From the IMG/VR virus record IMGVR_UViG_2802429234_000002: a stretch of 30,476 nt of DNA; one strand, 5' to 3'. The stretch's first letter is position 1; the number at the start of each line of letters is the position of its first letter. Origin of the DNA: a virus (lineage: Duplodnaviria > Heunggongvirae > Uroviricota > Caudoviricetes). Made by a program: the position numbers and the translations under genes. The notes under the pieces were generated by a model. That model was not told the DNA's origin and did no database searches. It was given only the letters and a program-made list of their open reading frames with translations. This document shows, in pieces, positions 2,322 to 23,873 of the stretch.

Positions 2322-2678
2322 ATGAATGTCGGATCTGAAATTTGTGACGAGAAAAGACAAGAAGTTTCTGCTCTTAAAAAAAACAAGCGTGATTCCATTA
2401 AGTTGGCTGCGGATCCGTCAGATTTACTGTCGAAAGAGGGTTTTGCTCTTTACATCGGTAAGACTCCTCGTGCGGTGGCTGAAATGGCACGAGCTGGAAA
2501 GCTGCCAGCATTCTATATGACAGACCCGTTAAAGCCGGGCGGTCACGCTGAGTTATGGATTAATCGTCGTGAGTGGGACAAATATGCAGCTCAACTAGTC
2601 GATGAAGCTCCGACAGAATGGCATGACTGGAAGAACCGCATAAGTTACAGCAAATCCAGACATGGCCACGCGGCCTAA
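2322..2678 (+). CDS. cox: Cox-like excisionase / early transcriptional regulator
   Basis: First rightward gene after the switch region; SD GAGGA upstream; positional equivalent of P2 cox; motif MTDP...WINRREW reminiscent of the Cox/Apl family; 118 aa, longer than P2 Cox (91 aa). Confidence 0.7.
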   Translation: MNVGSEICDEKRQEVSALKKNKRDSIKLAADPSDLLSKEGFALYIGKTPRAVAEMARAGKLPAFYMTDPLKPGGHAELWINRREWDKYAAQLVDEAPTEWHDWKNRISYSKSRHGHAA

Positions 2679-2687
2679 GGAGGAGCC

Positions 2688-3152
2688 ATGAGGCAAGATT
2701 TAAATAAAACATCGGTGACTATCATCAGAGGAAACCTTGAAGATGCATCACCATCTAACAGCCTGACTATTACGTATAGTGAGTTTGCTAATAGTACGAA
2801 AGAATATAAATCAGCCGATGAATTGAGAAAACAAAATATCATTTTGGATAATGATGAACTTGTTTTTATTAGTTCAGATGGTGATGAAGAAATTCTACGG
2901 CTGAATTTGAAATCTTTATTTCATGACTCTTTTTTGCGCATTAAATATGAATGCGTTGGTATGACCGTTCAAGAGCGCATGGAACTCGCTAAGGCTCTTC
3001 GTGAAACGATAATTTCTAAATCAGGCGATATAAATAGTATTAAATGGTCAATAGGGCTTGATGACTGGAAAAGTATTTTTGACATGATGACGCATCCGTA
3101 TAAACAGCATACGGATGCAAGATGCTATTTTAAAAATGATTTATATCAATAA
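2688..3152 (+). CDS. Hypothetical protein, 154 aa, no recognisable family; low-GC moron
   Basis: ATG 9 bp after the cox stop with strong SD (AAGGAGG); G+C about 37% by manual count of 2688-2759; not part of the P2 gene set I recall. Confidence 0.65.
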   Translation: MRQDLNKTSVTIIRGNLEDASPSNSLTITYSEFANSTKEYKSADELRKQNIILDNDELVFISSDGDEEILRLNLKSLFHDSFLRIKYECVGMTVQERMELAKALRETIISKSGDINSIKWSIGLDDWKSIFDMMTHPYKQHTDARCYFKNDLYQ

Positions 3153-7677: not shown

Positions 7678-7892
7678 GTAAAAACACAACGTGATTTGAT
7701 ATGGCATTGAATGGCTTATGCGGAGCAGTTATGGGGCAGCCGAAGGTCAATAGCATGCTGAATTAGAAGGCTAAATGCTATTGAGTGACTAGCATGTCGG
7801 TAAGGACAGCCGTTTGATCCGGGTCATAAAAGGCCATCCATTTAGTCTAATAAAATCATTGCGGGTAACCTTATGTCGACGCATAATTCGTC

Positions 7893-7907
7893 TTGAGCGA
7901 AGTCTTG
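7893..7907. repeat. Direct repeat copy 1 (TTGAGCGAAGTCTTG)
   Basis: Exact 15-bp match to 8157-8171. Confidence 0.85.
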
Positions 7908-7937
7908 TCAGTCTTTCATCGTATTGATGATGGGCGC

Positions 7938-7967
7938 AAAAAAACCACCCTGGCAGGTGGTTTTTTT
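7938..7967. terminator. Bidirectional rho-independent terminator (A7 - GC hairpin - T7)
   Basis: AAAAAAACCACCCTGGCAGGTGGTTTTTTT; serves the end of A (plus) and the small minus-strand peptide gene. Confidence 0.8.
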
Positions 7968-7979
7968 GTTTGAAGCATA

Positions 7980-8093
7980 TTAAAGCATAATGCTGACATT
8001 GATATTACTGACGTTTACTGACAAACCACTCGGACTACCGTTTGGATAGCCAAAGAGGGCCAGAACGAGAATGCAGTAATAGCATTTCTTCAT
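7980..8093 (-). CDS. Small hydrophobic peptide, 37 aa (MKKCYYCILVLALFGYPNGSPSGLSVNVSNINVSIML)
   Basis: ATG at 8091-8093 preceded by AGGAGG with 4-nt spacer (minus strand); hydrophobic N-terminal segment; terminator immediately downstream; lies where P2 carries tin/old. Confidence 0.4.
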   Translation of the reverse strand: MKKCYYCILVLALFGYPNGSPSGLSVNVSNINVSIML

Positions 8094-8156
8094 ATTGCCT
8101 CCTGTAAGTAGAGGGCAACTTCCACCGGTATATGCGCTTCTTAGGTGGAATGACTT

Positions 8157-8171
8157 TTGAGCGAAGTCTTG
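8157..8171. repeat. Direct repeat copy 2 (TTGAGCGAAGTCTTG)
   Basis: Exact 15-bp match to 7893-7907; the two copies bracket the terminator and the small peptide gene. Confidence 0.85.
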
Positions 8172-8238
8172 CCCTGAAATAATGCTCTGTTTAAACGCAA
8201 AGTGATTTGGCATATCACCGAACAGAGAGCCGGAAAAA

Positions 8239-8286
8239 CACAACATATAGTATGTCGTTGTTTCTAGACATACATTCTATGTTGTG
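8239..8286. repeat. Imperfect inverted repeat (18/20-bp arms, 10-nt spacer)
   Basis: CACAACATATAGTATGTC ... GACATACATTCTATGTTGTG; outer 9 bp and inner 6 bp pair perfectly. Confidence 0.7.
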
Positions 8287-8571
8287 TAACAAGGGCTTTG
8301 CATTAAACATGTTTGAGATTTTATTGATGTAGCTCAAAGTAAAAAACAGAGACTACGGATGATAAGGTCTTGAAAGCAATGTAAATTTTTTAAGGTTGCC
8401 AATTGCTTAAAAATGTACAGTTGCGGTATGGCGTACTTAAAAAGCTATGCATGCAACAAGTGAATGTTTTTGCATGCGTTGGGGATGTCCGTTCAGGCTG
8501 CGTGCGGTCAGGACTGGTGCGGATCCATAGTATCTATGCAACTGCATTAAAACCGCCCCGTGAAGCGGGCG

Positions 8572-8590
8572 GGCGAGGCGGGGAAAGCAC
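8572..8590. other. cos: cos site (19-nt cohesive-end sequence of the P2 family)
   Basis: GGCGAGGCGGGGAAAGCAC matches the P2 cohesive end as I recall it; located between A and Q as in P2; a GC-rich hairpin lies just 5' of it. Confidence 0.8.
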
Positions 8591-8732
8591 TGCGCGCTGG
8601 CGGTGGTGCTGATTTTATTTTTTCAGCGTCTGAGCGCGTCGTGATGGCGTTTAGATTGTGCGCCGGGGCGTTGGTGTGTCTGCGGGATGTTTTGTGCGGT
8701 GGTGAGCGTGTGAGGGCGTGATGACAGGGTGT

Positions 8733-8754
8733 AAAAAAGCCGCCCGCAGGCGGC
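8733..8754 (-). terminator. Rho-independent terminator after Q
   Basis: On the minus strand GCCGCC-TGCG-GGCGGC followed by TTTTTT, 5 bp past the Q stop. Confidence 0.75.
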
Positions 8755-8759
8755 GATGT

Positions 8760-9794
8760 TCAGCCGTTGTCAGTGTCCAGTGAGTAGTTTTTAAAGCGGA
8801 TGACCTCCTGACCGAGCCAGCCGTTTATTTCCCGAATCCTGTCCTGTAACGGGATAAGCTCATTGCGGACAAAGACCTTTGCCACTTTCTCAATATCTCC
8901 CAGCGACCCGACGTTCTCCGGCTTGCCTCCCATCAACTGAAAGGGGATGCGGTGCGCGTCCAGCAGGTCAGCGGCGCTGGCTTTTTTGATATTAAAAAAA
9001 TCGTCCTTCGTTGCCACTTCACTGAGCGGGATAATTTTAATGCCGTCGGCTTTCCCCTGTGGGGCATAGAGAAACAGATTTTTAAAGTTGTTGCGGCCTT
9101 TCGACTTCACCATGTTTTCGCGGAGCATTTCGATATCGTTGCGATCCTGCACGGCATCGGTGACGTACATGATGTATCCGGCATGTGCGCCGTTTTCGTA
9201 ATACTTGCGGCGGAACAGCGTAGCCGACTCATTCAGCCAGGCAGAGTTAAGGGCGCTGAGATATTCCGGCAGGCCGTACAGCTCCTGATTAATATCCGGC
9301 TCCAGCAGGTGAAACACGGAGCCGGGCGCGAAGGCTGTCGGCTCGTTGAAGGACGGCACCCACCAGTACACATCCTCTTCCACACCACGGCGGGTATATT
9401 TTGCCGGTGAGGTTTCCAGTCTGATGACCTTACCGGTGGTGCTGTAACGCTTTTCCAGAAACGCATTACCGAACACCAGAAAATCCAGCACAAAGCGGCT
9501 GAAATCCTGCTGGGACAGCCACGGATGCGGGATAAATGTCGAGGCCAGAATATTACGTTTGACGTAAATCGGGGAGCTGTGATGCACGGCAGCACGCAGG
9601 CTTTTTGCCAGACCGGTAAAGCTGACCGGTGGCTCATACCATCTGCCGTTACTGGTGCACTCGACGTAATCCAGAATGTCACGGCGGTCGAGTACCGGCA
9701 CCGGCTCACCAAAGGTGAATGCCTCCATTTTCGGGGCGCTGGCGGTCATTTTTTTTGCCGCAGGTTGCGGTGTTTTCCCTTTTTTCTTGCTCAT
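8760..9794 (-). CDS. Q: Portal protein
   Basis: 344 aa, same length as P2 Q; precedes the terminase large subunit; 1-nt stop/start overlap with P. Confidence 0.9.
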   Translation of the reverse strand: MSKKKGKTPQPAAKKMTASAPKMEAFTFGEPVPVLDRRDILDYVECTSNGRWYEPPVSFTGLAKSLRAAVHHSSPIYVKRNILASTFIPHPWLSQQDFSRFVLDFLVFGNAFLEKRYSTTGKVIRLETSPAKYTRRGVEEDVYWWVPSFNEPTAFAPGSVFHLLEPDINQELYGLPEYLSALNSAWLNESATLFRRKYYENGAHAGYIMYVTDAVQDRNDIEMLRENMVKSKGRNNFKNLFLYAPQGKADGIKIIPLSEVATKDDFFNIKKASAADLLDAHRIPFQLMGGKPENVGSLGDIEKVAKVFVRNELIPLQDRIREINGWLGQEVIRFKNYSLDTDNG

Positions 9795-11566: not shown

Positions 11567-11739
11567 GAATACCTCGCCGTGATGAATACACGGCAAGGCT
11601 ACTGAGTCGCGTCCCGCGATTCGCTAAGGTGCTGTTGTGTCAGTGATAAGCCATCCGGGACTGATGGCGGAGGATGCGCATCGTCGGGAAACTGATGCCG
11701 ACATGTGACTCCTCTAATCACTATTCAGGACTCCTGACA

Positions 11740-23776: not shown

Positions 23777-23873
23777 ATCTGTTGTTTCATCCATTGACCA
23801 GTCAGGACAAATAGCGTCTCATGCCCTGTACAACTGAAAATACCACTCACCCATTAACCACGGAGTTAAACGG

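Follow-up and report, generated by a model that had tools for sequence, protein, structure and literature searches.

A candidate NrdR-type operator at a predicted FNR-type promoter upstream of a small peptide gene in a P2-like prophage

NrdR is a tetramer when it binds two 16-bp boxes, and to our knowledge, its known role in Escherichia coli is the control of three ribonucleotide reductase operons only. The two boxes of an NrdR site are partly palindromic and lie 15 to 16 bp apart; C4, A6, A8, T9, T11, and G13 are conserved in them, and a synthetic box made to the consensus reads ACACAACATCTAGTGG (PMC12176259, PMC13584703). Besides the standard spacer of 15 to 16 bp, surveys accept spacers of 14 to 17 bp, or of 24 to 27 bp. 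E. coli NrdR bound spacers of 15 to 18 bp in vitro, with a KD of 66 nM at 18 bp, and a reporter with the 18-bp spacer was derepressed in vivo (PMC12051234). In a native E. coli box, a single change at G13 abolished NrdR binding, and operators with one mutated box were bound 530 to 1,000 times worse. Among the operons that NrdR represses is nrdDG, which encodes the anaerobic ribonucleotide reductase. At nrdDG, two FNR sites are centered at −64.5 and −33.5, of which the distal one is necessary and sufficient for activation (PMC10425943).

The DNA analyzed here is a stretch of 30,476 nucleotides (the window) that represents a P2-like (Peduovirus) prophage. On the + strand, the gene for gpA, the replication endonuclease, extends to 7677; genes Q (portal, 8760-9794) and P (terminase) have the − strand orientation. 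The sequence near 8572-8590 is presumably the cos core, judged by the P2 cos sequence. The interval between gpA and gpQ of P2-like phages is an anti-phage hotspot whose protein-coding cargo has been catalogued (Rousset et al. 2022, PMC9122126). In the window, this interval measures 1.08 kb and holds no protein cargo, only a gene for a 37-amino-acid peptide and noncoding DNA. Where the variable region borders on gpA, there is a conserved module (7678 to about 8395), and the DNA to the right of this module is variable. The location is that of the published hotspot; unlike the catalogued cargo, the module is largely noncoding, and neither the module nor its promoter is described in that work.

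The module is present in 158 of the 5,426 complete E. coli genomes (about 3%), in three phage records (one phage appearing under two accessions), in 28 IMG/VR contigs, and in 11 metagenome contigs; none of the species scanned has it in its representative genome, and no RefSeq feature underlies the module match in the 30 records listed. Its distance from cos is about 310 bp in the window haplotype and about 400, 1,940, or 2,970 bp in others, in which the intervening cargo includes an ImmA/IrrE peptidase gene. Directly past the right end of the cos core, at the equivalent of 8591-8740, E. coli LY180 (W lineage) has a sequence unrelated to that of the window, so that variable DNA also occurs between cos and gene Q, beyond the gpA-cos interval; several viral contigs break at the same point past cos, with cos matches of only 56 to 59 nt. 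Many complete E. coli assemblies start at base 1 with P2 gpA and carry the module at 2560-3040 (e.g., NZ_CP119441.1 and NZ_CP119008.1; loci L005 and L045), and these chromosomes have evidently been rotated onto the prophage replication gene instead of dnaA. Among all the loci that carry the element described below (viral contigs, metagenomes, and E. coli genomes), only two alleles of it were found. Allele A, the version in the window, is nearly clonal and always accompanies an empty hotspot, and allele B occurs in several diverged lineages.

A preliminary description of this DNA had reported an imperfect inverted repeat in the module, with arms separated by 10 nt and with 9 plus 6 paired positions. 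Both arms and their separation are indeed present in the window sequence, since arm 1 (CACAACATATAGTATGTC) occupies 8239-8256 and arm 2 (GACATACATTCTATGTTGTG) occupies 8267-8286 with a gap of 10 nt. The pairing is slightly better than described, with a perfect outer stem of 10 bp (8238-8247/8278-8287) and an inner stem of 7 bp (GTATGTC at 8250-8256 and GACATAC at 8267-8273) around the 10-nt loop. The distances given before, about 145 bp to the peptide gene and about 285 bp to cos, likewise agree with ours: the repeat is located 146 bp upstream of the ATG of the peptide gene at 8093 (− strand) and about 286 bp from the presumed cos core. When we counted perfect inverted repeats whose arms measure 10 bp or more and are 3 to 40 nt apart, the whole window contained 6 versus 0.94 expected (about 6-fold enrichment), and the gpA-cos interval (7678-8560) contained 3 versus 0.043 expected (about 70-fold enrichment). 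RNA folding of both strands, which had been proposed as a check, revealed a strong fold for the 66-nt repeat stretch of allele A, with −21.1 kcal/mol (z = −4.1) on the + strand and −20.6 kcal/mol (z = −4.6) on the − strand, and none of 200 shuffles folded as well. These data indicated that the inverted repeat is real and far beyond chance.

Some other repeats were seen in the prophage. A second perfect 10-bp inverted repeat (TCAATAGCAT, 18 nt, ATGCTATTGA; 7748-7757/7776-7785) is located in the fast-diverging spacer after gpA and is not conserved in allele B. Two 8-mers of the main repeat recur, one in the PP/PO region (TGTTGTGT, 11633-11640) and the other in PF (GTTGTTTC, 23782-23789). The half-site of the repeat has no other exact copy in the prophage and one more copy at one mismatch; the repeat is therefore not a reiterated phage operator, and an immunity operator was dropped as a candidate for this reason. 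Integron attC-like and LexA-like elements were rejected by eye since their core motifs do not fit, and the variable region begins about 110 bp away.

The outer arms are complementary because each of them is the outer half of a partly palindromic 16-bp NrdR-type box. Judged by its sequence, what looks like an inverted repeat with 30 nt between the arms is thus two adjacent palindromic NrdR-type boxes, which together with their spacer span 8238-8287. Box L (ACACAACATATAGTAT, 8238-8253) contains C4, A6, A8, T9, T11, and G13, and it differs from the consensus ACACWATATATWGTGT at two positions. Box R (ACATTCTATGTTGTGT, 8272-8287) is half-degenerate: it shows three mismatches to the consensus, keeps A8, T9, T11, and G13, but C4 is replaced by T in both alleles, and A6 is replaced by C in allele A. 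Three of the four half-sites in the pair are intact. The spacer (8254-8271) is 18 bp long in allele A and 16 bp in allele B, and it holds the allele A-specific inner right arm. Given the tetrameric state of NrdR on two 16-bp boxes, the arms would not be the site of a simple dimer on one dyad. The earlier proposal of an operator for a dimeric regulator therefore survives in part, as an operator made of two tandem NrdR-type boxes, and the simple dimer dyad is given up.

To score the boxes, we built a position weight matrix from only the six experimentally validated E. coli NrdR boxes, with sequences taken from PMC12176259. Among the 30,461 positions of the window, box L at 8238 ranked first with 19.5 bits and box R at 8272 ranked second with 10.5 bits. 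For comparison, the validated boxes score 14.5 to 18.6 bits and the nonfunctional nrdAB box 0, which does not bind NrdR, scores 5.4 bits. Box L thus scores higher than all six validated boxes, whereas box R falls below the validated range but above box 0. With up to three mismatches to the NrdR consensus allowed, the whole window yielded three matches versus 0.12 expected, and two of these are the arms. Compared with the synthetic consensus box of PMC13584703, box L is identical at 13 of the 16 positions, and its core CAACATATAG fits the published core pattern C.[AT].[AT][AT].[AT].G. The published operator definition demands this core twice (PMC13584703), and a search for the pair found the chromosomal nrdDG operators, used as a positive control, but neither allele of the element, as the window and loci L003 and L005 returned no match. 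The pair pattern fails at the repeat because box R is devoid of C4.

Compared with the nrdAB and nrdHIEF operators and with the pair built from the synthetic box, the prophage boxes have the same 16-bp, partly palindromic form, and their spacer is within the range of 15 to 18 bp bound in vitro. By the weight matrix, no native E. coli box comes as close to the consensus as box L. In contrast to validated operators, in which C4 and G13 are found in both boxes, one of the prophage boxes carries T4.

As an independent check, a search of viral contigs with nothing but the arm pattern returned unrelated phages, and three of these matches proved to be NrdR box pairs of canonical form, spaced by 16, 17, and 27 bp; an interpretation of the unrelated matches as chance hairpins was dropped in favor of NrdR-type box pairs. 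They are located near nonreductase genes, at 9809-9857 of contig L041, 5017-5064 of L036, and 1526-1584 of L040. The pair in L041 lies upstream of an operon with genes for an XRE-type helix-turn-helix protein, an MBL-fold (Apyc1-like) protein, and a GyrB-type topoisomerase, and that in L036 is followed by genes for a DUF5662 protein and a nicotinate phosphoribosyltransferase. A link of such genes to NrdR may be common among phages.

The DNA next to the boxes resembles the promoter of a reductase operon. In BLAST, 8295-8362 weakly matched the DNA between nrdD and treC on the chromosomes of E. coli and Salmonella (88%, E = 2e-12), and BLAST together with alignment delimited a block at 8293-8393 (− strand) with homology to the sequence that precedes chromosomal nrdD in Escherichia and Salmonella. 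Within this block, a 41-nt FNR core is identical to that of E. coli nrdDG at 39 of 41 positions in allele B and at 35 of 41 in allele A, and the 55 nt upstream of the core are about 75% identical to the nrdDG region. Downstream of GCAAA, past both FNR sites, identity to nrdDG is at the random level, except for the −10 hexamer found at the same distance. The homologue of FNR site 2 (TTGAGctacATCAA, 8324-8337, − strand) is identical to E. coli nrdDG and shows one mismatch to TTGAT-N4-ATCAA. The homologue of FNR site 1 (8293-8306, − strand) reads TTAATgcaaAGCCC in the window and TTGATgcaaAACCA in allele B, such that its first half-site is TTAAT in allele A and TTGAT in allele B. The centers of the two sites, 8330.5 and 8299.5, are 31 bp apart. 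The −10 hexamer (8274-8279, − strand) is TAGAAT in the window and TAAAAT in both allele B and E. coli nrdDG, and its spacing to the FNR sites is that of nrdDG. A 287-bp contig from a Bacillota assembly (NZ_VLXZ01000155.1, Alkalicoccobacillus porphyridii) also matched the promoter region of E. coli nrdD in a comparison that spanned roughly 130 nt, and this contig is most likely contamination.

Generic sigma-70 scans returned only weak, background-level candidates and were set aside, and the promoter was assigned by homology instead. When the published FNR positions are applied to the two site centers, each of them predicts the start of the peptide mRNA at about 8266 on the − strand, 8 nt past the −10 hexamer and within the loop of the repeat. 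By sequence, the two sites then stand at −64.5 and −33.5, the arrangement of an FNR-activated promoter of the nrdDG type. With this homology-inferred start, the boxes overlap the core promoter, since box R would cover −21 to −6, enclosing the −10 hexamer, and box L would cover +14 to +29 of the peptide mRNA.

The locus is therefore like E. coli nrdDG in its near-identical pair of FNR sites (allele B) with the same 31-bp separation, in the placement of the −10 hexamer, in its orientation towards a downstream gene, and in the presence of two NrdR-type boxes over the core promoter and the start site, the latter being predicted here. It is unlike nrdDG in other respects. The prophage boxes are situated about one helical turn further downstream than those of nrdDG (about −30 to −15 and +2 to +17). 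The box nearer to the promoter is half-degenerate, with the −10 hexamer inside it, and the gene downstream encodes the 37-amino-acid prophage peptide rather than a reductase. Furthermore, the homology to nrdDG stops just before the boxes, indicating that the boxes were not simply inherited in place.

We compared the two alleles of the repeat, as conservation of the dyad had been named as a check. The outer arms withstood this comparison, because both of them, and the whole left half, are kept in allele B, whereas the inner stem is confined to the window allele. The inner right arm reads TCTGG--TTGCATTT in allele B versus TCTAGACATACATTC in allele A; allele B is 2 nt shorter, does not form the inner stem, and folds no better than shuffled sequences (z = −0.5 and −0.9). 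Inside the repeat there are three polymorphisms, none of them at a conserved box position, which is weak evidence for an NrdR operator. The alleles diverge by about 10% across the module, comparable to the 7 to 10% at third codon positions of gpA, and the conservation of the arms is consequently no proof of selection. Two alleles alone also offer too little variation for covariation or consensus-fold analysis. In E. coli EC12, the segment equivalent to 8226-8395 is an allele B patch that covers the repeat and the FNR promoter within an otherwise allele A module with an empty hotspot. By its sequence, the promoter/operator block has evidently been exchanged by recombination as a unit.

The allelic differences at the inner stem form a cluster, in which a stretch of about 12 nt contains five substitutions and a 2-nt indel, versus about 10% divergence in its surroundings. 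We consider it fairly probable that this stem accounts for the strength of the hairpin but is without function, being a mutational by-product of an imperfect palindrome in which a template switch copied GTATGTC as GACATAC. Apart from the clustering, this would fit with the new bases of allele A being the exact reverse complement of the left inner arm, and with allele A being essentially one clone while the other state is common to several diverged allele B lineages. With two alleles and no outgroup, either state may be the older one, and TTGCAT of allele B, which recurs 25 nt away, might instead be the templated state. Most simply, the inner stem would be a clustered change, possibly hairpin-templated, and not a conserved requirement. 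An inner stem of this origin can be reconciled with either a working or a vestigial NrdR operator.

We put at about even the chances that the repeat is an NrdR-type operator at the predicted start of an FNR-type promoter that reads into the peptide gene. At such an operator, FNR would activate the peptide promoter when oxygen is absent, and NrdR loaded with dATP and ATP would bridge both boxes, cover the −10 hexamer and the early transcribed region, and repress the promoter by blocking RNA polymerase. Production of the peptide would then be expected at low oxygen and with a falling dATP signal. Repression would probably be weaker than at the reductase operons, and weakest in allele A, since box R lacks C4 and the spacer in the window is 18 bp. 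The features that speak against an NrdR operator are the T4 of box R, with C6 in addition in allele A, the 18-bp spacer, and the TTAAT half-site of FNR site 1 in allele A; the operator is possibly weakened or vestigial.

That it is vestigial, descending from or mimicking an NrdR box pair with no useful NrdR binding left, appears somewhat unlikely to us. The promoter would in that case respond to FNR only or be constitutive, and the element would persist only through the youth of the module. Such decay is suggested by box R, which fails C4 in both alleles and with it the pair pattern, given that defects at a single position or in a single box abolish binding in native E. coli operators, and the window allele adds the 18-bp spacer and a worse A6. 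The near-neutral divergence between the alleles points in the same direction. What random decay would hardly leave behind is a second-ranked box among 30,461 positions that is correctly spaced from the first, with the canonical 16 bp in allele B. Likewise, the outer half of box R complements that of box L at 10 of 10 positions, including noncritical ones, and its 10.5 bits are well above the 5.4 bits of the nonbinding nrdAB box 0.

The strong fold of allele A on the − strand (−20.6 kcal/mol, z = −4.6) would also suit an RNA hairpin in a − strand transcript with a start beyond the repeat (candidates at about 8302, 8311, or 8352). In the leader of that transcript, the hairpin might serve as a structural element or as a weak intrinsic terminator and so insulate or attenuate the peptide gene. 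In allele A, UUUUU follows the stem, and this U-run and the inner stem appear together relative to allele B; weak sigma-70-like matches are present upstream, and the outer helix is retained by RNAalifold if its input contains both arms. Nevertheless, we regard such a hairpin as improbable. The fold is not favored in allele B (z = −0.9), in which the U-run and stem are absent, and the upstream promoter candidates are no better than background. A scan of the − strand for intrinsic terminators made no call at the repeat, whose stem is AU-rich (3 G-C among the 10 pairs of the outer stem) with a 10-nt loop and only 4 to 5 U after it. With the covariance models of Rfam 15, no match overlapped 8230-8295 even at E values up to 10. 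Moreover, the promoter supported by homology starts inside the loop, and the peptide mRNA would hold one arm only, which also argues against a structured small RNA at the repeat. That suggestion of the preliminary description finds neither an Rfam match at the repeat nor a hairpin that is stable beyond allele A, and it is not supported.

The inner element of the repeat (TGTCGTTGTTTCTAGACA, 8253-8270) fits TGT-N12-ACA, quoted as the Ogr consensus in PMC3931495, and might be taken for the Ogr/delta site of a P2 late promoter. The motif is found in the window allele, but ACA is absent in allele B, the window contains 5 matches versus 7.6 expected by chance, and any TGTC-N10-GACA dyad satisfies the pattern automatically. 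A late promoter of this type would have a conserved TGT-N12-ACA dyad centered about 55 bp upstream of a late start, and the motif here is not conserved between the alleles; an Ogr/delta site is very unlikely. Finally, a terminase or host-factor site belonging to cos, as proposed before from the nearness of the repeat to cos in the window (about 286 bp), is refuted and can practically be dismissed, because the element is found about 300, 400, 1,940, and 2,970 bp from cos in related prophages (0.3 to 3.0 kb) and travels with the peptide module and not with cos, which excludes a role in packaging.

The only plausible target of the promoter is the peptide gene (7980-8093, − strand), which encodes the 37 amino acids MKKCYYCILVLALFGYPNGSPSGLSVNVSNINVSIML and is annotated as ECW_m2278 in E. 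coli W. Family and homologue searches returned no family match and no distant homologues for the peptide. Its predicted transcript has a 173-nt leader and a strong Shine-Dalgarno sequence (GGAGG at 8100-8104). In the leader, a hairpin at 8120-8151 shows a compensatory change between the alleles (CCACC/GGTGG versus CCGCC/GGCGG), and downstream of it, CCUCU could pair with the Shine-Dalgarno sequence AGGAGG. On the other side of the peptide gene, a candidate small RNA of 75 nt (7895-7970, + strand) is preceded by a promoter composed of TTGCGG (7859-7864), 17 nt, and CATAAT (7882-7887), and it folds with z scores of −4.7 and −5.0 in the two alleles. A bidirectional terminator at 7937-7968 is common to the candidate small RNA and the convergent peptide gene. 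A direct repeat of 15 nt, with an invariant core of 12 to 14 nt across the alleles, links the two genes: one copy, DR1, is located at 7893-7907, at the predicted 5′ end of the candidate small RNA, and the other, DR2 (8157-8171, − strand), gives the peptide leader a complementarity of 13 to 15 nt to that end. The layout at 7859-8171 resembles that of a type I toxin-antitoxin pair.

In timP/TimR, zorO/OrzO, and par of pAD1, small toxic proteins are repressed by a nearby small RNA, and par has a shared bidirectional terminator and direct repeats. The prophage peptide gene is similar to these systems in its short hydrophobic product, strong Shine-Dalgarno sequence, and long leader, as well as in its convergent small-RNA-like gene, shared bidirectional terminator, and direct-repeat complementarity to the leader, all three of which are predicted here. 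By analogy, the layout of the peptide gene and its candidate small RNA resembles that of small toxic proteins under nearby small RNAs. TimP has been described in PMC7667032. Unlike timP/TimR, zorO/OrzO, and par, none of which is known under an NrdR/FNR promoter, the prophage peptide has a predicted one and belongs to no matched family.

Taken together, the sequence features suggest that the element is an imperfect addition to the known class of NrdR operators, unexpected on a nonreductase prophage gene; the literature searched contained no report linking NrdR boxes to prophage genes. The gene predicted to be its target lies on the gpA side of a known anti-phage hotspot, and its toxin-like, unannotated peptide product has a candidate partner in the small RNA. 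A far-reaching and unlikely extension of this reading is that the prophage has wired a toxic peptide, held by its own small RNA, to NrdR and FNR, with release of the peptide when dATP falls, as a nucleotide-depletion-sensing switch for abortive infection or maintenance. If so, the trigger could be, for example, a lytic phage that drains or reprograms the dNTP pool, and the switch would be placed at the fixed edge of the P2 defense hotspot. Irrespective of such a switch, control of a nonreductase prophage gene by NrdR and FNR would, if true, extend the NrdR regulon to mobile DNA and clearly exemplify how a phage can borrow a promoter of its host to read the dNTP and oxygen state of the latter.
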